DNA of 64,000 bases from the NCBI GenBank assembly GCA_963662265.2, contig CAXXHA010000029.1, positions 128,001-192,000 on the forward strand, in the 5' to 3' direction. This DNA is from Spirochaetia bacterium (GTDB lineage Bacteria; Spirochaetota; Spirochaetia; CADAEX01). A model generated the notes under the pieces. It did not search any database and was not told the origin of the DNA. It saw only the letters and a program-made list of their open reading frames with translations. The position numbers were made by a program, and so were the translations under genes. Shown here piece after piece: positions 3,970 through 25,628 of this stretch; within the stretch, counting starts at the first letter, position 1; every line of letters begins with the position of its first letter.

Positions 3970-5691
3970 ATGAGATTAAGCAGATATTTTCTAAGAACAT
4001 ATAAGGAAGCTCCCAGGGATGCCCAGACACCCAGTCATATACTCATGCACCGGGCAGGGATGATACAGAAACTGACAAGCGGTATTTATAATTATCTGCC
4101 GCTTGCCTGGAAGACTATCAAAAAAATTGAGGCAATTATCAGGGAGGAACTCGACAGGAGAGACTGCCAGGAAGTTCTGATGCCTGCAGTCCAACCTTCT
4201 GATCTCTGGGAGGAAAGCGGCAGATGGAACTACTACGGACCTGAACTTCTCCGTTTCAAGGACAGGAAAAATGCAGATTACTGTCTGGGTCCTACTCACG
4301 AAGAGGTAATTACAGACATGGTCAGAAGGAATATCAATTCCTACAAGCAGCTTCCTGTAAACCTCTACCAGATTCAGACAAAATTCCGTGACGAGATAAG
4401 ACCCCGGTTTGGTTTAATGAGAGGCCGGGAATTCATAATGAAAGATGCGTACAGCTTTGATACTGATGATGAAGAGTCAAAGAAGAGCTACCAGAAGATG
4501 TATGAGGCATATACAGATATATTCACCCGGTGCGGTCTCAGGTTCAAGGCTGTCGATGCTGCTACAGGAGCAATCGGGGGCGATATGTCTCACGAGTTCC
4601 AGGTGCTTGCGGAAACAGGGGAGGATGAAATACTTTCCTGCTCAAAATGCAAATATGCCGCAAATGTGGAAAAAGCTGTAACTGTACGGGATATTAAAAA
4701 ACCTGCTGATGCTGGTAAGTGTGAAGTCAGTGAAGTTCATACTCCCGGTGCAAAAACTATTGATGAGATTACTGATTTCCTCAAGAAATCAGCAGACCAC
4801 ATGATTAAGACTCTTATCTATCTTATTGATGATGAACCTGTTGCAGTTCTTGTAAGGGGAGACCTTGAAGCGAATGAAGCCAAAGTTCAGTCATCTCTCG
4901 GCGCAAGCGCTGTCTTTCCGGCAGATGAAGAAACAGTAAAGAACGTTACTGGAGCCGAGGTAGGATTTGCAGGACCATTGAATCTTAAAGAGGATATAAA
5001 AATACTTGTCGATGAGCAGCTTTATGCATATACCGACATGGTTTGCGGCGCAAACAAGACTGATTATCACCTTACAGGTATTGATCCTGAAAGAGATATA
5101 AAGCCGTTTAAAGTTGGAGATTTCACTTTTGCTCATCCCGGAGAAAAATGTCCGCACTGTGAAGGGACTCTCGAATCATACAGGGGAATCGAGGTGGGAC
5201 AGGTATTTTTCCTGGGTGATAAATATTCAAAGGCTATGAACTGTAATTATCTTGACCGGAACGGCAAGGAAAAACCCATTGTCATGGGCTGCTATGGAAT
5301 AGGTGTAGGAAGAACAATGGCAGCTGCAGTTGAGCAGAACCATGATGAATACGGTATTAAATGGCCGGCAGCAATAGCTCCTTTCGAAGCAGTTGTTCTG
5401 CCTCTCCAGTCAAACAAGGAAGAGGTGATGGATCTTGCTGAAAAATTCTACTCAGAGCTTCAGGCTGCGGGAATAGATACAGCTATTGATGACAGGAAAG
5501 AGAGAGCAGGTTTCAAGATGAATGATGCAGACCTTATCGGATATCCATTGCAGCTGATTATCGGAGCAAAGATGATTGAGCAGGGCCTTGTAGAGATAAA
5601 GGAAAGATCAACAGGTGAGAAGAGGGAAGTGAAGATTGAAGATGCTGTAAACGAGATAACTTCTAATCTTGCAAAACTCAAGAATCAATAA
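3970..5691 (+). CDS. proS: Prolyl-tRNA synthetase with editing insertion
   Basis: LGPTHEE, KFRDEIRPRFGLMRGREFIMKDAYSF and MGCYGIGVGR motifs. Confidence 0.98.
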   Translation: MRLSRYFLRTYKEAPRDAQTPSHILMHRAGMIQKLTSGIYNYLPLAWKTIKKIEAIIREELDRRDCQEVLMPAVQPSDLWEESGRWNYYGPELLRFKDRKNADYCLGPTHEEVITDMVRRNINSYKQLPVNLYQIQTKFRDEIRPRFGLMRGREFIMKDAYSFDTDDEESKKSYQKMYEAYTDIFTRCGLRFKAVDAATGAIGGDMSHEFQVLAETGEDEILSCSKCKYAANVEKAVTVRDIKKPADAGKCEVSEVHTPGAKTIDEITDFLKKSADHMIKTLIYLIDDEPVAVLVRGDLEANEAKVQSSLGASAVFPADEETVKNVTGAEVGFAGPLNLKEDIKILVDEQLYAYTDMVCGANKTDYHLTGIDPERDIKPFKVGDFTFAHPGEKCPHCEGTLESYRGIEVGQVFFLGDKYSKAMNCNYLDRNGKEKPIVMGCYGIGVGRTMAAAVEQNHDEYGIKWPAAIAPFEAVVLPLQSNKEEVMDLAEKFYSELQAAGIDTAIDDRKERAGFKMNDADLIGYPLQLIIGAKMIEQGLVEIKERSTGEKREVKIEDAVNEITSNLAKLKNQ

Positions 5692-16838: not shown

Positions 16839-19292
16839 TTAACTGTCATACAGAATATTATGCACTGTTTTAGATAATGTGTAGATTGTATAAGGCTTCT
16901 GAAGAAAAGCGCTTATTCCGAGCTGTATAACTTCCTGTACACGGTTGTCATACTGGAATCCTGATGTTAATATCACTTTTATATCAGGATTTATCTCTTT
17001 CAGAAGGAGATATGCCTCCTTTCCCGACATTTCCGGCATTATCATATCCAGTATAACTGCTTTTATGCTGTTTTTATTTTCCTTGTATATATTCACACCC
17101 TCAAGACCGTTTTTAGCTTCCATGACGCTGTATCCGCATGTTTTAAGAATATCAGAGGCAGTTTTTCTTATGGCTTTTTCATCATCAATAATAAGTATAA
17201 GACCTTCACCACGCAGTCTTTCCTGTTTTATGTCATGATTTATCCCGATGATTTTATCATCAGTCAGAGCGGGAAGATATATATTGAATTTTGATCCGAA
17301 ACCAGGTTCTGAATATACATCGATAAAACCGTCATGCTGTTTGATTATGTTATATACCATGGACAGTCCCAGGCCGCTTCCTTCACCTTTTTTCTTTGTA
17401 GTGAAAAAAGGATTAAATATATTTGATATTGTTACTGAATTCATTCCTACACCTGTGTCTTTGACTGACAGGATGAAATATTTTATGTTTTCCATTGAAG
17501 GATGATTTTTCAGCATATATGAATCAGGGGTTATTTCCTTTACCGACACTGTAAGATCTCCTCCCCAGTGATCATCTTTGTTCCTCATAATTGTCATTGA
17601 ATGTTCTGAGTTGACACAGAAATTAAGAAGCGCCTGTTCCAGTAGATTCGAATCTCCTCTTATAAATGCTGGTTTTTCAGCAGGTATAATATTTATATTT
17701 ACCGATTTATCAAAAGAATTTTTTCCAATCTGTATTACATTATTAACAATTTCATTAAGATCAATTCTGCTGAAAATTATTTCCTGTTTCCTTGACAGTG
17801 CCAGAAGCTGGTTAACCATGTTTGATGCCCTGCTGCTGCATTCATTCATTGTGGATATGTATTCAGTAAGTTGGTCTGTTTCAATTTTTCCGTTATCAGA
17901 AAGGTTGTATTCTATCAGGGAAAGAGTTCCTATAATTCCTCCCAGCATATTATTGAAATCATGGGCAATACCTCCTGCAAGGGTTCCTACAGTCTCCATT
18001 TTCTGAGCCTGCCTGAGCTGTTCATCTGATTTCTGTATCGAATTAATCATGCTTTCCAGAATACTTCCAAGCTCCCTTGTTTCAAGTGTCCCGCTGACAG
18101 GAATATCTGAATTTTCTATACCGTTCTTTTCAATGTTCTGCGCAGCTATCATAAGTTTGTGGAGAGGTTTTGTAAGATTCTGTGAAAGTAAAAGAAGCAA
18201 TGCAGTGATGACACCTATGAAAAAAACTGAGAGGAATATAATATGTTTTGACAGTTTTTTGACAGGTTTTTCTATTTCATCCATATAAATCGATGATGCA
18301 ATATACCAGTCGAGTGGTTTAAAATAAATTATATATGCCTGTTTTCTGAACCGGAAATCGTTTTCAAATCCAGGTTTATCCCATAAATAATAAAAAGGAA
18401 TATCGGAAGTTTCAGATGCTTTAATTAGATCATCGAAAATATTTTTTCCTGTTGCAGGATTAATCATTTTCCTTACATCCTGCCCTTCAAGGGTTGGATG
18501 AATAAGCATGGTATTATCGCCAGTGAAAACATATATATAACCGTTGTCAGCTATTTGTACCTTTGAAAAGGTCTCTTTCAGTTCCTCGAGTACTGCATTT
18601 ATTCTGAGTTCCACATCTTTTTCAATATCATCGATATAGACACCGGTTCCTATAATCCAGTTCCATTTTTTATATAATTTCACATGTGATATTTTAGGCT
18701 GATCAGAAGACAATTCTTCCCCGAGCGGCTTGGGCCACAGGTATTCCACAAATCCTTCACCGGAACTGAGACATATATCAACAATTTCTTGAAAAAGGTT
18801 TTTACCGGAAACTGAAAAAGTATTGAAAACTTCATTGCTTAGTATTGTATTATTCAGTTCAGGCATAACAGGATGCATTATCATCTCTGGAAAAGGTTTT
18901 CCTGTATCATTGATCCAGAAATAGCCAACTCCGTTGTCATACCTGATTTTTTCTATATTTTTTAAAGCTTCAGTTTTTGCCTCTGTTTCTGATAAAACTC
19001 CATCTGAATATTTTTTATAATATGAATCAATGAGGTTGAAAACTATATTTGATATGTTTTTCAATTCTTTCTGTCGTTGTTTTTTCGATATATCTTTCTG
19101 GAAAAGTATGCTCTGATACTGGTTCTGGACGCTTAAAAATATAGAATTTACAAGGTTATGGGCATATTCATTCTGAGATTTAAGAATAGTTCTCTGGGTA
19201 GCAATCTGGACAAGGAAAATCATGATAAACAAAGTAAATATAATTGTTCCAAGTACATAGAATAAGAGTTTTGATCTCAGTGACTTAAACAT
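16839..19292 (-). CDS. Hybrid sensor histidine kinase (Cache domains, HAMP, HisKA, HATPase, receiver)
   Basis: GYFWIND/HP Cache motifs; GIAHDFNN; FFTTK...GLGL; receiver ILDMIMP...KP. Confidence 0.92.
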   Translation of the reverse strand: MFKSLRSKLLFYVLGTIIFTLFIMIFLVQIATQRTILKSQNEYAHNLVNSIFLSVQNQYQSILFQKDISKKQRQKELKNISNIVFNLIDSYYKKYSDGVLSETEAKTEALKNIEKIRYDNGVGYFWINDTGKPFPEMIMHPVMPELNNTILSNEVFNTFSVSGKNLFQEIVDICLSSGEGFVEYLWPKPLGEELSSDQPKISHVKLYKKWNWIIGTGVYIDDIEKDVELRINAVLEELKETFSKVQIADNGYIYVFTGDNTMLIHPTLEGQDVRKMINPATGKNIFDDLIKASETSDIPFYYLWDKPGFENDFRFRKQAYIIYFKPLDWYIASSIYMDEIEKPVKKLSKHIIFLSVFFIGVITALLLLLSQNLTKPLHKLMIAAQNIEKNGIENSDIPVSGTLETRELGSILESMINSIQKSDEQLRQAQKMETVGTLAGGIAHDFNNMLGGIIGTLSLIEYNLSDNGKIETDQLTEYISTMNECSSRASNMVNQLLALSRKQEIIFSRIDLNEIVNNVIQIGKNSFDKSVNINIIPAEKPAFIRGDSNLLEQALLNFCVNSEHSMTIMRNKDDHWGGDLTVSVKEITPDSYMLKNHPSMENIKYFILSVKDTGVGMNSVTISNIFNPFFTTKKKGEGSGLGLSMVYNIIKQHDGFIDVYSEPGFGSKFNIYLPALTDDKIIGINHDIKQERLRGEGLILIIDDEKAIRKTASDILKTCGYSVMEAKNGLEGVNIYKENKNSIKAVILDMIMPEMSGKEAYLLLKEINPDIKVILTSGFQYDNRVQEVIQLGISAFLQKPYTIYTLSKTVHNILYDS

Positions 19293-19461: not shown

Positions 19462-19693
19462 GTGGGCAAACGTCTATGGAAAAAACTCGCTTTTGCGAGT
19501 TTTTAGAAGCGCCCATAAATAATAATAGGTTTTCGGATTGATAAATGCAAATCAAAAAAATAATTGGGCAGTTGCTTTTTTATGAAAAGGTTTGATATTT
19601 ATCATGAAAAAAACTAATTAACATCATGTAAAAATCTCATTTAAATTGAAACAGACTTTGCTGTGTAATATAATTAATTTTAGGAGGTCTGTT

Positions 19694-19891
19694 ATGCTTG
19701 TATCAGTAGAACCAATGGGGGATTTATTCGGCATAAGAATCCCGGGTTATATCATGAAAAAACTTCATATCGGCAACCAGGTGGATCTTGAAGTCCATGA
19801 CCATGATATTCTCATGAAACCTGTAGATACATGGGAAGAAGGAAGTCCTGAACAGATATATAATGAAGCTCCTGAAAACGACTGGCAGTAG
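19694..19891 (+). CDS. AbrB/MazE-family antitoxin-like protein, with no adjacent toxin
   Basis: AGGAGG RBS; MLVSV..MG..FGIRIP...VDLEV...ILMKPV fold pattern; acidic tail ending DWQ. Confidence 0.7.
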   Translation: MLVSVEPMGDLFGIRIPGYIMKKLHIGNQVDLEVHDHDILMKPVDTWEEGSPEQIYNEAPENDWQ

Positions 19892-20345
19892 AGTTCAGCT
19901 TTTATATTTGTTTCACGCCAGATTGTTTGCAGTGTGATTCTTGTACTTTTGTTTTTTCTGTTTACCTGAAAAAGTTGTTTTTATGATTTCCTGTCTGTAT
20001 TTATGCTGATTAAAGGTTTCACAGCTGTTCAATTATCCGCCGTAACTGGTATGCTGTATGGAAAAATATTTTACGGCGGATTAAATTAAGATATTATCCA
20101 GTTTATAAATATTTCAAGGTAATAAAGGAAAGCCTGAAAATGATCAAAATCAAAAATATGTTTTTATACTGAATACTTTAACCTGTTTATTGATAAGTAT
20201 TAATGCTATAAACTTTAATCAACAACCCCTTTGTCACCAGTTCCGGTGGTACTGGTTTTTTATAAGCTGCGGGATTAGACATGACCTGCGAATAAAGCAG
20301 AATATGAGTTCTGCTTATTTTTTTAATGAAAGGAAGTTCTGTTTT

Positions 20346-20795
20346 ATGGATAATAACTCTGTTTTAAGAAGTCTGCGATATATTCTCAATGCCGATGACA
20401 AGAGGATGACTGAAATATTTTCAGTTCAGGGGAGAAGTCTTGATATATCCAAGGTAAGCAGCATGCTTAAAAAGGAAATTGAAGAAGGATATACAGAGTG
20501 CAGTGATGAACTTCTTATACAGTTTCTTGACAGTCTTATAATTTTAAAAAGAGGTCCCAGGGATTCATCAAAACCGGAACCTAAAAAAGAAATATTAAAT
20601 AATAATCTTATACTGAAAAAACTGAGAATTGCTTTTAATTTTAAAGAAGATGAAATGATCAGAACATTTACCGACGGCGGATATGCTATTGCTAAATCTG
20701 AACTGAGTGCATTTTTCAGGCGGAAGGATCATAAAAACTATAAAGATTGCGGTGATCAGCTTATGAGGAAATTTCTAAAGGGGCTTTCTGTTTAA
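20346..20795 (+). CDS. DUF1456 (YehS-like) protein
   Basis: NNSVLRSLRY, NNLILKKLRIA and SELSAFFRR..HKNY..CGDQ..RKFL motifs. Confidence 0.88.
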   Translation: MDNNSVLRSLRYILNADDKRMTEIFSVQGRSLDISKVSSMLKKEIEEGYTECSDELLIQFLDSLIILKRGPRDSSKPEPKKEILNNNLILKKLRIAFNFKEDEMIRTFTDGGYAIAKSELSAFFRRKDHKNYKDCGDQLMRKFLKGLSV

Positions 20796-20800
20796 AAATA

Positions 20801-21652
20801 ATGGATAATTATATCTTTCTTGATACAGATAAAAAAACAGCCGGGTATTTTTCATCTCTGAAACAGAGAGGTATTGAAAAAACAGCAGTAGACCTGGAAG
20901 GGGAGTTTAATCTTCATCATTACGGGGAGCATTTGTGCCTTATACAGATTTATGACGGTGAACAATGTGTAATAATTGATCCGCTGAAAGTTTCTGTATC
21001 GCTGATAAAGAATTTTTTCGAAGACAGTTCAGTTCTTAAAATAATGTATGGCTGTTCCACAGACAGAACACTTCTCTACCGGAAATACGGAATAAGTTTA
21101 AATTCAGTAATGGACCTGTACCTGGCTTCGGAAATCCTCGATTATCAGAAGAAAGGGCTTGATTCGATGCTTGAATATCATTTTATACTGAATAAGAAGA
21201 ATAAAAAGAAATATCAGAAATATAACTGGATGAAGAGGCCTGTTCAAAAAGGAGCCCTCGAATATGCTTCAGAAGATGTTGCATATCTTTTCAAACTCAG
21301 TACTGTACTTATGAAAGAGATGTTTGAAAGGAATCTTATCGAAACATATATTCTGAAAAATAATGAATTGCAGATACGTCCGATTACAGAAGACCCGGTA
21401 CCCGGTATTCTTAAAAAAAGAAGATACAGAAACCTTTCCAAAAAAAGCAAGAAAATATTCCTGAGCCTCTTTGATATGAGGGATAAATATGCGGAAAAAC
21501 TTGACCTGCCGCCAAACAGTGTTTTTTCCAATGATGATTTATTCAGTCTGGCATCCTTTGCTTTAATTCCGGAAAAAACACCTGTTTCATCAAAAATGAA
21601 CAGTAAAATGCGAGAGGATATTTATGATGATATCAGGCGCTGTATAGGATGA
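20801..21652 (+). CDS. RNase D-like 3'-5' exonuclease with HRDC domain
   Basis: AVDLEGE, CLIQI, W..RP...LEYASEDV; HRDC-like RDKYAEKLDLPP..VFSN. Confidence 0.85.
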   Translation: MDNYIFLDTDKKTAGYFSSLKQRGIEKTAVDLEGEFNLHHYGEHLCLIQIYDGEQCVIIDPLKVSVSLIKNFFEDSSVLKIMYGCSTDRTLLYRKYGISLNSVMDLYLASEILDYQKKGLDSMLEYHFILNKKNKKKYQKYNWMKRPVQKGALEYASEDVAYLFKLSTVLMKEMFERNLIETYILKNNELQIRPITEDPVPGILKKRRYRNLSKKSKKIFLSLFDMRDKYAEKLDLPPNSVFSNDDLFSLASFALIPEKTPVSSKMNSKMREDIYDDIRRCIG

Positions 21653-21660
21653 ATTATTTT

Positions 21661-23076
21661 TTACATTTTTTTATGATAATATTCCGCAAATTTAAAATCT
21701 TCTTCCATGATGTGATCTTTAAGCCAGTTGTATAGAAATTCCTCAACATTATCGGAAAAAGCATAATTCCTGTTTCTGTTGAGTTCAATTACTTTCTCTG
21801 AGAGAATTCTGTGTTCTTTTATATGATCTTCGCTGAAGGGATAATCTGTTTCTCTGAAAAGATCTTCCTCATTTGCAAAATGTTCAATTGTAGATTCAAT
21901 CAGCCTGTCATAGTAAACAGTAAGTAGATCCTTGTCATATCCTTTTTTTATTGCTTTTGTAAAATTATCTGTGATTTCAAAAAGATTCTGATGTTCCTCG
22001 TCAATTGCCAGTATTCCTGTGTTGTAATCATCAGACCAGTCGAATAATGATGTTTTTGATCCCAATGAAAATATTTTTGATTTTTCAGAATCATTTACAA
22101 GCAGAAGCAGACTATCATTTTTCTCAAGTACAGTATCTGGTGAAGGATTATTTAATACAGTATTATCCATTTTTTTAAGAACAGGAATGCTTTCAGCTCC
22201 TGTCCTCTTTTTTACATCAGCTACAGTGATTTCCTCATCATTGAAGTGGTTGTATATTTTTAATGTATATCCCATGACTGACATCTGTTTGTAGTCAGAT
22301 GTTTCAATATTTTTATTTTTACTGAATTTCTTTTTAATCTGGTTGGCAATCTGTTCTCCCCCCATCTTAAGAGGATAAACAACCTTGTTTGCTCCTGCTC
22401 TTATCAACCTGTTTTCAATGTCTGATTTGTAACCTCGTGCAATAATAAAAAGATCAGGGTTTAACTCCCTGGCTGCAAGAGATACATACATATTAATGGA
22501 ATCATCACCCATGCTTACAACAATCCCCGATGCTTTTTTTATTCCAGCCTGGATAAGTGTTGAATCATAAGTTGCCTTTCCAATAACTGTCAGATAATTT
22601 CTTTTCTGTGCCCAGGAAGCAGTTTCCTCATTGTTTTCAACAACAACAAAAGGAATATCAGAGTCGTGGAGTGAATATGATATTGAACTTCCTATTCCAC
22701 CGAAACCGCATATAATGTAGTGCCCTTTGAGATTTTTAATTTTTTTAAGCATTTTGCTTTCTCCGAAATATCTTTTAAAGTTGTTTTCAACAAAAGCTCT
22801 TGCCAGCTGTGTTGCAAAAACAGCGGCAGAACCAAGTCCGCAGAAAATAAGAAATACAGTGAATATTCTTCCTGCATCTGACAGCGGTTTTGTTTCGCCG
22901 TATCCCACAGTGGTAATTGATATAGCTGTCATGTAGAAGCTGTCCATAAGTGTCCAGTCTTTCTCAATAAAATAATATCCGAAAGTCCCGGTGCAGAAAA
23001 TTATAATTATGAGTATCAGTATTTTAAATAAATTATATTTTTGTGATTCCATCTTTAATACATTTTCGTCTTTCAT
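21661..23076 (-). CDS. 2-TM potassium channel + RCK (TrkA-N) + C-terminal bacteriohemerythrin fusion
   Basis: TTVGYG filter; IICGFGGIG Rossmann motif; hemerythrin motifs IDEEH, HFANEE, HIKEH, WLKDHIMEED. Confidence 0.92.
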   Translation of the reverse strand: MKDENVLKMESQKYNLFKILILIIIIFCTGTFGYYFIEKDWTLMDSFYMTAISITTVGYGETKPLSDAGRIFTVFLIFCGLGSAAVFATQLARAFVENNFKRYFGESKMLKKIKNLKGHYIICGFGGIGSSISYSLHDSDIPFVVVENNEETASWAQKRNYLTVIGKATYDSTLIQAGIKKASGIVVSMGDDSINMYVSLAARELNPDLFIIARGYKSDIENRLIRAGANKVVYPLKMGGEQIANQIKKKFSKNKNIETSDYKQMSVMGYTLKIYNHFNDEEITVADVKKRTGAESIPVLKKMDNTVLNNPSPDTVLEKNDSLLLLVNDSEKSKIFSLGSKTSLFDWSDDYNTGILAIDEEHQNLFEITDNFTKAIKKGYDKDLLTVYYDRLIESTIEHFANEEDLFRETDYPFSEDHIKEHRILSEKVIELNRNRNYAFSDNVEEFLYNWLKDHIMEEDFKFAEYYHKKM

Positions 23077-23183
23077 GTAAATAAAATTGATAACAATTAT
23101 TATTACAAAAAGTTGTCGTAAATATTCAGTTTTTCTATTAAAATTAGTTAATAATTAAAAAAAACACACTTTCAAGGAAAATT

Positions 23184-25628
23184 ATGATAAAAAAAATATC
23201 AGTATGTTTTTTATATACATTTCTTTTCATATTTTCAACTGTTTCAGTTTATTCAGATGTAGATATAAGCCTTTTATGCCAATCATTATTCAGTGAAGTT
23301 AAAGTACCTATTCTTATTATTGATACTGATACATCTGTAATAGTTGAGCTGAACAAAGCTGCTGTTGATTTTTACGGATATGATTATGATGAAATCAAAG
23401 GTATGAATATCAGTGAAATCAATACAATGAGTGCTGAAGATGTCAATTCGGAAATTAATAATACAGTAAATGAAAAAAGAAATCATTTTATATTCAGGCA
23501 CAGACTTTCTGGGGGAAAAATACGGGATGTAGAAGTTTATTCATCTCCTGTTGAAATCGGGGGGAAAAAATATCTTACATCTTTCATACATGACATAACT
23601 GAAAGAAAAGATATGGAAAATAAACTTAAAGCCAGTGAAGAAAGGGGCGCAATTGCGGAAAGTTTTGCAAGATACGGCAACTGGGTTTTAAATATGAATA
23701 ACGGAAATTTTACCGGTTCCGAAGGGGCAAAAAAAATATTCGGATATGAAGATGATGTTTTTACAATAGCTGAAGTTTATGAGGTAATACTTCCTGAATA
23801 CAGGGAAATGATTGATAGTGCGTTACGAGAACTTGTAAGTTCAGATATTCATTATAATATAAGGTACAAAATAAAGAGGAAAACTGACGGAAGAATAATT
23901 GATATAGCATCGACTGCCAGATATGATCATGATAAAAATACAGTTTTCGGCATTATTCAGGATATAACCGAGGAAACAGCAGCATATGATCTCCTTTATT
24001 TCAGGACCTCTATATTTCTCTCAGTGCTTTTTATTATTCTTTTCATACAGTTTGTAGTAATTGTTTTCTATATCCGGGCCAACAATATGAAAAAAGCTGC
24101 ACAGGCGACTCTGGTTGAGAAATCAAGGGAATTTGACAGGTTTTTCAGCCTGAAATCAGATATTTTATGTGTCTTCGATAAAAACGGATGCCTGATTAAG
24201 ATAAATGAAGCATGTGAGAATCTGATGGGAGTATCTATGGAAGATGCTGTTGAATCTGATATTTATTCATATATTGATACGGATGACAGGGATAAATTTT
24301 CAGCTGCACTTCAAGCAATAACAGAAGATGGAGATACTTCAACTTCGGAAGTTGCTGTTATCAGCAATGATAACGGGAAAAGATATGTAGAGTGGAATAT
24401 AAGCCGTGACAGCGGTTTTTTCTACGGTGTTGCCCGGGATGTGACTGAAAGAAGAATCAATGCTGAAAAGCGGCTGAAAATGGAGAAACAGATACTTCAG
24501 ACTCAGAAACTTGAAAGCCTTGGCGTTCTTGCAGGAGGTATTGCCCATGATTTTAATAACATACTTATGGCAGTTCTCGGCTATACAGAACTTGCACGGA
24601 TGGAAATAAGTTCGGCATCACCTGCATACGGCAATCTCAGGGAAATTGAAGCTGCATCAAAAAAAGCCTCAAGGCTGTGCAGCCAGATGCTTGCATATAC
24701 CGGTTGTGCCTCCTATAACCTTGAAAAGGTTAATATAAATAAACTGATAAATGAAATGATTCATCTTGTAAAAACACTTATAACCAAGAAAGCTGTTCTG
24801 AATTTAAGCCTGGAGGAAAATATATCAGCTATTGACGCAGATCCGTCACAGATAAGCCAGGTGATTATGAATCTTATAATAAACAGTTCTGATGCGATTG
24901 GTGAAAGTAACGGAGTTATTTCAATTTCGACAGGTTCATCTTTTTTTGATGTTGATTATCTGTCGAAAACAACAACATATGAAAATCCTGAACCTGGAAA
25001 ATATGTTTATTTTGAAATTTCCGATACAGGATGCGGTATTTCTTCCGGTGAAGTGGAAAGGGTTTTTGAACCGTTTTATACAACTAAATTTACAGGCAGG
25101 GGACTGGGGCTCGCGGCGGTTCAGGGAATTGTCCGGTCGCATAAAGGTTCAATAAAAGTTTACAGTGAAGAGGGCAAGGGAACCAACTTCAAGGTGATGT
25201 TTCCTGAGGCTGACAACGGTAAGAAAATTTCAGAACCTGATGAAAATGGAGAAAAAAGCAGCTGGAAAGGTTCCGGCACTGTACTGTTTGTTGATGACGA
25301 AGATACTCTTAGATTTCTCGGCTCGGATATGCTGAAGAAACTGGGTTACAATGTTGTAACAGCAATTGACGGAAGTGATGCTGTCCGGAAATACAGGGAA
25401 CTGAAAAGCGAAATTGATTTTGTCATACTTGATCTTACAATGCCTAACATGGACGGCAGCCAGGCTTTGAGTGAAATTAGAAATATAAATAACGATGTTG
25501 ATGTTATTGTTGCAAGCGGATACAGCTATAATGATATTGTTGCAAGATTTTCCGGTAAAAATATTTCCGGAATAATACAGAAACCCTATTCAATGGATAA
25601 AATAAGGGAAATACTTGAAAACATATAA
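23184..25628 (+). CDS. Hybrid histidine kinase with three PAS domains and a receiver
   Basis: PAS/PAC motifs (HDITERK, QDITE, RDVTER); GIAHDFNN; FYTTKFTGRGLGL; LDLTMPNMDG. Confidence 0.92.
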   Translation: MIKKISVCFLYTFLFIFSTVSVYSDVDISLLCQSLFSEVKVPILIIDTDTSVIVELNKAAVDFYGYDYDEIKGMNISEINTMSAEDVNSEINNTVNEKRNHFIFRHRLSGGKIRDVEVYSSPVEIGGKKYLTSFIHDITERKDMENKLKASEERGAIAESFARYGNWVLNMNNGNFTGSEGAKKIFGYEDDVFTIAEVYEVILPEYREMIDSALRELVSSDIHYNIRYKIKRKTDGRIIDIASTARYDHDKNTVFGIIQDITEETAAYDLLYFRTSIFLSVLFIILFIQFVVIVFYIRANNMKKAAQATLVEKSREFDRFFSLKSDILCVFDKNGCLIKINEACENLMGVSMEDAVESDIYSYIDTDDRDKFSAALQAITEDGDTSTSEVAVISNDNGKRYVEWNISRDSGFFYGVARDVTERRINAEKRLKMEKQILQTQKLESLGVLAGGIAHDFNNILMAVLGYTELARMEISSASPAYGNLREIEAASKKASRLCSQMLAYTGCASYNLEKVNINKLINEMIHLVKTLITKKAVLNLSLEENISAIDADPSQISQVIMNLIINSSDAIGESNGVISISTGSSFFDVDYLSKTTTYENPEPGKYVYFEISDTGCGISSGEVERVFEPFYTTKFTGRGLGLAAVQGIVRSHKGSIKVYSEEGKGTNFKVMFPEADNGKKISEPDENGEKSSWKGSGTVLFVDDEDTLRFLGSDMLKKLGYNVVTAIDGSDAVRKYRELKSEIDFVILDLTMPNMDGSQALSEIRNINNDVDVIVASGYSYNDIVARFSGKNISGIIQKPYSMDKIREILENI

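Follow-up and report, generated by a model that had tools for sequence, protein, structure and literature searches.

A Potassium Channel-RCK-Hemerythrin Fusion in a Spirochaetia Genome: A Candidate Oxygen- or Redox-Responsive Channel

The Fusion Gene and Its Pore

The window analysed here is a stretch of 64,000 nucleotides from a Spirochaetia bacterium (contig CAXXHA010000029.1, positions 128,001 to 192,000). On its minus strand, at 21661..23076, an open reading frame (ORF) of 471 codons without an internal stop, followed by TAA, was identified, and its profile matches mark it as a fusion of a K+ channel, an RCK domain and a hemerythrin domain (protein P0001). An initial annotation, made from the DNA letters, had described a two-transmembrane (2-TM) pore with the filter motif TTVGYG, an RCK domain and a C-terminal hemerythrin with all seven di-iron ligands. 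This anatomy was borne out by profile searches, by reading of the sequence and by alignment with the hemerythrin domain of DcrH, and the coordinates given for TTVGYG, for Met109 and for a GGAG motif all match the sequence exactly. The features described below lie on the minus strand, and residues are counted from the first codon of the ORF.

The contigs of four sequencing runs were compared over 21200-23500. In two runs of one sample, possibly the one from which the window derives, the stretch is present in a single piece with zero differences. In two runs of a second sample from a second study, the gene is spanned with one substitution, record 9 of X4 covering 21200-23477 and record 19 of X5 covering 21658-23500. 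Misassembly, which the initial annotation had named as a refuting outcome, and an artefact of gene calling were ruled out by these contigs of the second sample and study, which cover the junction, and because the fusion is found repeatedly in other genomes; the fusion is genuine. At window position 21663, one X4 contig (depth 2.8) lacks a single base of an A-rich run at the stop codon, where the other three runs are intact. No RNA run was listed among the sequencing runs that contain the gene.

The frame is open from 23076, as annotated, but this is not the most probable N-terminus. The true start is probably the ATG of Met9 (23050..23052), because two orthologs from the same genus (loci L004 and L005) start at its equivalent. 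A Shine-Dalgarno (SD)-like motif was found upstream of neither Met1 nor Met9.

Residues 22-96 (22789..23013) match the Ion_trans_2 profile of Pfam with an E-value of 9e-18 and correspond to a 2-TM pore, in which the selectivity filter TTVGYG occupies residues 55-60 (22897..22914). Conservation of residues was counted, here and below, among the 96 full-length relatives (at least 420 amino acids) out of the best 120 in the protein collection; T55 is kept in 88 of these, T56 and G58 in all 96, and G60 in 91. By sequence, the pore together with the RCK domain matches MthK at 2.7e-22, with MthK pore chains among the matches. In a monomeric AlphaFold2 model that draws on 65 relatives, the predicted local distance difference test score (pLDDT) averages 90.3, and low confidence is confined to the linkers 257-263 and 338-340. 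In a Foldseek search, this model matched full-length MthK chains best, with an E-value of 2e-18 over about 330 columns. The predicted product of the gene is a K+-selective 2-TM channel whose architecture is of the MthK/GsuK class.

The RCK Domain

The N-lobe of the RCK domain, residues 120-235 (22372..22719), matches the Pfam profile TrkA_N with an E-value of 4.5e-28. For the C-lobe, placed at about residues 264-338 (22063..22287), the TrkA_C match is weak (residues 286-331, E 0.011, under the Pfam cut-off), and the assignment also draws on an alignment with the second RCK domain (RCK2) of GsuK and on the AlphaFold2 model, which has strands between 270 and 328 and a helix from 329 to 338. When the RCK domain was searched alone, the closest solved structure was GsuK RCK2, aligned over both lobes with E-values of 4e-25 to 1.1e-24 over three entries, followed by KtrA.

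Inside the N-lobe, the Rossmann signature GxGxxG is found at residues 124-129 (22690-22707) as G124-F-G126-G-I-G129. G124 is present in 96/96 full-length relatives, G126 in 87/96 and G129 in 88/96, and E147, with whose acidic side chain beta2 ends, is E or D in 93/96. The protein is therefore predicted to be MthK-like in architecture, with an RCK domain of the nucleotide-binding type rather than of the Ca2+ type of MthK. For GsuK, activation by ADP and NAD+ and a pocket for the beta-phosphate of ADP on the second RCK domain are described in PMC3510474. Since the RCK domain of the fusion keeps the Rossmann motif, the basal ligand of its ring is probably a nucleotide such as ADP or NAD, and a second ligand beside any signal from the hemerythrin is likely for an RCK domain of this type.

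The Hemerythrin Domain

The bacteriohemerythrin domain occupies residues 344-466 (21679..22047). It is recognized by the NCBIfam model bact_hemeryth NF033749 over these residues (92.3 bits at a cut-off of 84), by TIGR02481 (score 93.9, cut-off 51.75) and by Pfam Hemerythrin PF01814 over residues 354-465 (E 3.8e-10, score 40.8, cut-off 25.3). The di-iron ligand positions H362, H399, E403, H418, H422, H455 and D460 follow the pattern H, HxxxE, HxxxH, HxxxxD, and the complete set HHEHHHD is kept in 92/96 full-length relatives. The closest solved hemerythrin is DcrH-Hr (2avk), which aligns end to end (E 4e-11) with all seven ligands coinciding residue by residue. In the AlphaFold2 model, the region forms a four-helix bundle at 356-470 with helices at 356-377, 382-410, 415-431 and 444-470, and the means of ten-residue blocks of pLDDT lie between 81 and 98.

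For hemerythrin domains of signalling proteins, PMC8846402 describes that O2 oxidizes the di-iron centre and that the state of the centre controls the adjoining output domain. The outputs named there are a diguanylate cyclase, VcBhr-DGC, and a phosphodiesterase, Bhr-HD-GYP, both governed by the oxidation state of the iron, which confirms the precedent of hemerythrin-regulated cyclases that the initial annotation had invoked. The hemerythrin domain of DcrH is called an O2 sensor in the title of a paper that PMC8846402 cites as its reference 72. Besides the fusion, the source genome contains one other hemerythrin only, which is free-standing.

A Candidate Internal Start in Front of the RCK Domain

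An in-frame ATG at Met109 (22750..22752) directly precedes the RCK domain, and a GGAG SD-like motif (22761..22764) lies 8 nt upstream of it. In MthK, the additional four RCK domains of the gating ring arise from an internal start at Met107 (PMC2154359), so the precedent on which an MthK-style internal start had been proposed for the fusion is confirmed; for E. coli Kch, a soluble RCK from the internal Met240 and an octameric ring are reported in PMC13563188. In the fusion, the internal product would consist of residues 109-471, a soluble chain of 363 amino acids comprising RCK and hemerythrin. Since this product includes the hemerythrin, an MthK-like ring would carry up to eight di-iron sites, if the start is used.

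The residue at position 109 is Met in 87 of the 96 full-length relatives; the others have Leu (4), Val (2), Ile (2) or Ala (1). Conservation of the site was also followed on the nucleotide level, in aligned channel ORFs of 88 loci, 10 of them with the hemerythrin fusion and the rest from hemerythrin-less relatives of many phyla. Five of 93 loci were omitted: L002, L012, L028 and L091 were too short, divergent or broken, and L003, the stand-alone hemerythrin, has no channel ORF. The codon in the Met109 column is ATG in 51 loci, TTG in 18 and GTG in 8, together 77/88, with CTG in 3 and other codons in 8. Where the column holds Leu, TTG is used in 18/24 cases as compared to 14.5% among the Leu codons of those genes, and where it holds Val, GTG is used in 8/8 as compared to 34% among the Val codons. 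GGAG or GAGG was identified 4-18 nt upstream of the column in 67/88 loci, as compared to 12.9% of 31,342 in-frame positions, and the mean energy of the duplex with the anti-SD sequence is -7.6 kcal/mol, as compared to -3.7 at 729 other in-frame ATGs. These counts over 88 loci overstate independence, since the loci are related.

In the fusion loci, GGAG upstream of the Met109 equivalent was found in 9/10, and the motif is encoded through different residue pairs, namely G-E, G-A, R-R, G-R and W-R. In the low-GC fusion loci it is spelled GGA-GAA and GGA-GCN, with GGA used in 6/6 cases as compared to 75/185 Gly codons of those genes. In a fusion locus of 72% GC it appears as CGG-AGG, although AGG makes up only 3/47 of the Arg codons; GGG-AGG and TGG-AGG are further spellings. 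In the window, the duplex energy of the internal site is -6.6 kcal/mol, which is the 5.3rd percentile among the in-frame positions of the gene and stronger than the value of +1.0 for the N-terminal ATG. An energy of -6.4 or lower is reached by about a fifth of the first start codons in the window, as compared to 5.4% of background positions.

The proposal of an MthK-style internal start is thus strengthened, in that both the identity of the start codon and the SD motif are kept at the nucleotide level across loci, a pattern that protein constraints alone hardly seem to explain. The comparison adds nucleotide-level support to the view that initiation in front of the RCK domain would be a conserved trait of single-RCK channels. 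Two proteins of the collection, P0147 (361 amino acids, RCK plus hemerythrin) and P0132 (279 amino acids, RCK plus the start of a hemerythrin), begin exactly at the Met that is equivalent to Met109; they may be stand-alone genes, or else internal starts picked by a gene caller on truncated contigs.

Distribution of the Fusion and Its Sister Channels

The search for the architecture Ion_trans_2, TrkA_N and Hemerythrin, which the initial annotation had suggested, showed all three domains in 93/120 best relatives by precomputed Pfam annotation. In a library clustered at 50% identity, the match spans pore, RCK and hemerythrin in 15/150 best representatives. In other genomes, nine independent fusion loci were recovered intact, with record titles of Spirochaetaceae, Sediminispirochaeta, Spirochaetia, Maridesulfovibrio, Myxococcales and Fibrobacteraceae, and within the genus of the source genome the fusion is present in one genome at 65% identity. 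Members of the family are named "bacteriohemerythrin" or "voltage-gated potassium channel" in databases, with entries from Desulfovibrio inopinatus, Fibrobacteria and Spirochaetales. The fusion family is thus present in databases under automatic names only, and while both halves belong to well-known kinds, their combination is uncharacterised. A frame-broken copy was found in a Humidesulfovibrio metagenome-assembled genome record (L028, about 4001-5402), in which the last hemerythrin helix is exchanged for unrelated residues. This copy represents a pseudogene or else an error of assembly.

A Pfam scan was made of ten relatives whose length departs from the standard one. One of them, P0147, is the RCK plus hemerythrin protein mentioned above. 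The other nine, all of them longer non-hemerythrin relatives (P0129, P0134, P0137, P0153, P0130, P0136, P0148, P0179 and P0131), carry a receiver or a receiver and an Hpt domain on the pore-RCK scaffold. In four relatives of 454-467 amino acids, a response-regulator receiver replaces the hemerythrin, in four of 588-604 amino acids it is replaced by a receiver plus Hpt, and one of 773 amino acids has an N-terminal Hpt and a C-terminal receiver. By their domains, these proteins look like phosphorelay-controlled K+ channels, and no paper on receiver-bearing pore-RCK channels was found in the literature search. The C-terminus of the ring appears to host swappable signalling modules, namely hemerythrin, receiver, and receiver plus Hpt; because these fusions occupy the same slot, the C-terminus is read as the position at which signals are fed into the ring. 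Tails of the receiver type were also noted, by eye only, at loci L082 and L087. At L063, a read-through of 790 codons was considered as a larger fusion and rejected, since it consists of a hemerythrin-less channel, a stop and then a separate gene.

Comparison with Known Systems

The nearest known architecture is that of MthK (PDB 1lnq, 6oly), which shares the 2-TM pore with a TVGYG-type filter, the single C-terminal RCK and the internal Met in front of it. In contrast to the fusion, MthK contains no hemerythrin, and the RCK with GxGxxG described here is closer to GsuK RCK2 and KtrA. GsuK from Geobacter sulfurreducens (PDB 4gx0, 4gx2, 4gvl), which provides the nearest solved RCK domain and is activated by nucleotides, likewise has no hemerythrin; it has two tandem RCKs per chain and for this reason needs no internal start. 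Kch resembles the fusion as an RCK-bearing K+ channel and makes a separate RCK of the kind predicted for the fusion, but it is a 6-TM protein without hemerythrin and is activated by Zn2+ and Cu2+, according to PMC13563188.

On the side of the sensor, DcrH, a chemoreceptor of the anaerobe Desulfovibrio vulgaris (PDB 2avk, 2awc), is a membrane signalling protein with a C-terminal hemerythrin like the fusion; in place of an ion channel, however, it has a methyl-accepting chemotaxis signalling domain as its output. VcBhr-DGC and Bhr-HD-GYP also join a hemerythrin to an output domain that follows the iron oxidation state (PMC8846402), but their hemerythrin is N-terminal and their outputs are soluble enzymes without a membrane pore. 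A survey of hemerythrin architectures lists 56 of them (PMC4919030); its text names fusions to MCP, GGDEF and HAMP, and its Figure 4 and supplementary S2, which hold the list, may include a channel fusion. No paper on a hemerythrin-bearing K+ channel was found by title or abstract, and the literature searches thus agree with the earlier statement that no characterised channel of this type is known.

A Model for the Channel and Its Alternatives

In the model proposed here, four full-length subunits would form the pore, and translation from the internal GGAG-N8-ATG at Met109 would supply four soluble RCK-hemerythrin chains as partners of the tethered RCK domains. The resulting octameric gating ring would carry up to eight di-iron hemerythrin domains, and a nucleotide (ADP, NAD or similar) would serve at the RCK as the basal ligand of the ring. 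The C-terminal hemerythrin, held on a flexible linker, would be a sensor of the DcrH type, whose diferrous site would be converted to the oxy or the diferric state by O2 or another oxidant. A change at the N-terminal segment of the hemerythrin, which is joined to the RCK C-lobe, would then bias the ring towards the open or the closed state, so that exposure of a fermentative anaerobe to oxygen or oxidants would alter K+ flux and membrane potential. We infer each of the steps on which this depends: the stoichiometry of the ring, the binding of nucleotide, the binding of iron and O2, and the coupling to gating.

The host would fit such a role. The source genome has a completeness of 90.6%, and no match to a haem-copper oxidase (COX1) or to cytochrome bd was found among its genes. 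Matches were obtained for rubrerythrin (3), [FeFe]-hydrogenase (4) and PFOR (several). Such a set of genes is consistent with a fermentative anaerobe, to which O2 would be a stress signal.

That the protein is a K+ channel gated by an RCK of the nucleotide type, with a ring on which the oxidation or oxygenation state of as many as eight hemerythrins exerts a further bias, is given about an even chance. The more specific proposal of a directly O2- or redox-gated K+ channel, whose ring holds eight di-iron hemerythrin sensors with four of them derived from internal translation, is tentative and somewhat doubtful. A number of observations weigh against the main model of a hemerythrin-biased ring, beginning with the distribution of the domain. 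In a complete single-contig genome of the same genus, an ortholog of 334 amino acids with 72% identity ends just before the hemerythrin (L005 in G001, ORF 1501-2505); this locus is syntenic, as its flanking genes match the window ORFs 19646-19891 and 20190-20795. The fusion is also rare, since 62 of 301 genomes sampled from the phylum have a channel match (1e-30 or better) and only the genome of the window is matched through residue 471. When residues 15-335, which cover pore and RCK, were placed in a quick maximum-likelihood tree, hemerythrin-less rows came out nested inside fusion clades, which amounts to at least 9-10 changes; the 120 relatives in the tree were chosen with the hemerythrin-bearing query, and some of the short rows may be truncated calls. 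Because of this patchy distribution, including the ortholog in the same genus, the hemerythrin is regarded as an accessory module that would be dispensable for the channel and gained or, more likely, lost easily. The syntenic locus L005 also lacks the ORF of 283 amino acids that is found at 20801-21652 of the window.

Other points on the same side concern the domain itself. Four of the 96 full-length relatives are short of one or two ligands (two with H418Q, two with H362L and E403Q), and the linker between RCK and hemerythrin varies from 9 to 35 residues among relatives, which speaks against a rigid lever. Coupling, if there is any, would therefore proceed through docking of the tethered domain. 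A prediction of the complex between the RCK (109-340) and the hemerythrin (343-471), made with alignments, gave scores of 0.01 and 0.00 at a mark of 0.32 and is neutral on docking.

Several alternatives keep the architecture and differ in the role of the hemerythrin. It might report cytosolic Fe2+ (by its apo and holo forms), NO or peroxide on the same ring instead of O2, which is judged unlikely. The model for this would be Bhr-HD-GYP, which according to PMC8846402 binds iron in the ferrous form only and is switched by redox without an O2 adduct, so that not every hemerythrin domain binds O2; this too counts against the main model. An anaerobe with many Fe-S enzymes is moreover dependent on iron, and the sequence does not separate O2 from other oxidants. 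On the other hand, the closest solved relative is DcrH-Hr, with its title as an O2 sensor in the paper cited by PMC8846402, and the ligand set retained in most relatives is the full one of an O2 carrier. It is less probable still that the hemerythrin is a local scavenger of O2 or oxidants, an iron store or an aid in assembly or stability of the ring, with gating by nucleotides or cations through the RCK only. Such a role would suit the close relatives, in the same genus and elsewhere, that manage without the domain, the variable linker, and the conserved ligand motif that the RCK has of its own. It is at odds with the fact that, judged by record titles, at least four phylum-level groups have kept the fusion and its ligands intact, and the receiver and Hpt domains in the same slot of sister channels fit an input module rather than a protective add-on. 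Bulk functions could in addition be covered by the free-standing hemerythrin of the genome.

The remaining alternatives concern the products of the gene. If the start at Met109 is unused, only the full-length chain would be made, and a ring of four RCKs, or paired channels, would carry four hemerythrins per pore; this would affect the stoichiometry only and is held to be about as improbable as a merely protective hemerythrin. The SD motif in the window is a weak 4-mer at about the 5th percentile of its gene, in a window where SD motifs are seen in only 20-40% of genes; one fusion locus, L018, has no SD motif, and the Met at position 109 could be kept for structural reasons. The weak motif, the exception at L018 and a possible structural role of the Met also weigh against the main model. 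They are countered by the preference for TTG and GTG in the Met109 column, by the SD enrichment over the 88 loci, by the preservation of the motif through different residues and rare codons, and by the experimental precedents in MthK (PMC2154359) and Kch (PMC13563188). Finally, an artefact of assembly or gene calling, by which the genes of a channel and of a separate hemerythrin were joined, carries a negligible probability in view of the single open frame, the contigs from two samples and studies at the junction, the 96 full-length relatives and the nine independent intact fusion loci.

Implications

Known outputs of hemerythrin sensor domains are chemoreceptors and enzymes of cyclic di-GMP turnover, and RCK rings are known to answer to Ca2+, nucleotides and metal ions. 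If the model of a hemerythrin-biased gating ring is true, the fusion would introduce new classes both of K+ channel input and of hemerythrin output. It would convert exposure to O2 or oxidants into K+ conductance and a change of membrane potential within a single protein, and would thereby act as an electrical oxygen alarm for anaerobic spirochaetes, sulfate reducers and fibrobacters. The alarm could feed into motility or aerotaxis and into metabolic shutdown without a kinase or a second messenger. Together with the receiver-bearing sister fusions, the C-terminus of the RCK ring would then serve generally as the place where signalling inputs plug into bacterial ion channels, and the protein would provide a small prokaryotic model for the direct action of O2 or redox state on a K+ channel. 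The subject bears on bacterial electrical signalling and on the reactions of strict anaerobes to oxygen.

Genomic Neighbourhood

An all-against-all comparison of the flanking ORFs across 10 fusion loci revealed no conserved neighbour other than the channel itself, and thus no operon partner. A scan of 21400-23400 was uninformative, with 6 promoter-like sites (shuffled sequences led to an expectation of 9.9) and, within the gene, 4 terminator-like sites that were weak. In the window, the locus is flanked by hybrid sensor histidine kinases with receiver domains, judged by eye, at 16839-19292 on the minus strand and at 23184-25628 on the plus strand, the latter being divergent from the channel gene across a spacer of 107 bp; these kinases are not a conserved context in the other fusion loci. 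A second, distant channel-RCK paralog is encoded elsewhere in the source genome (locus L002, G000:C13:99433-100161), with 27% identity over residues 17-239 in an open frame of 396 codons.

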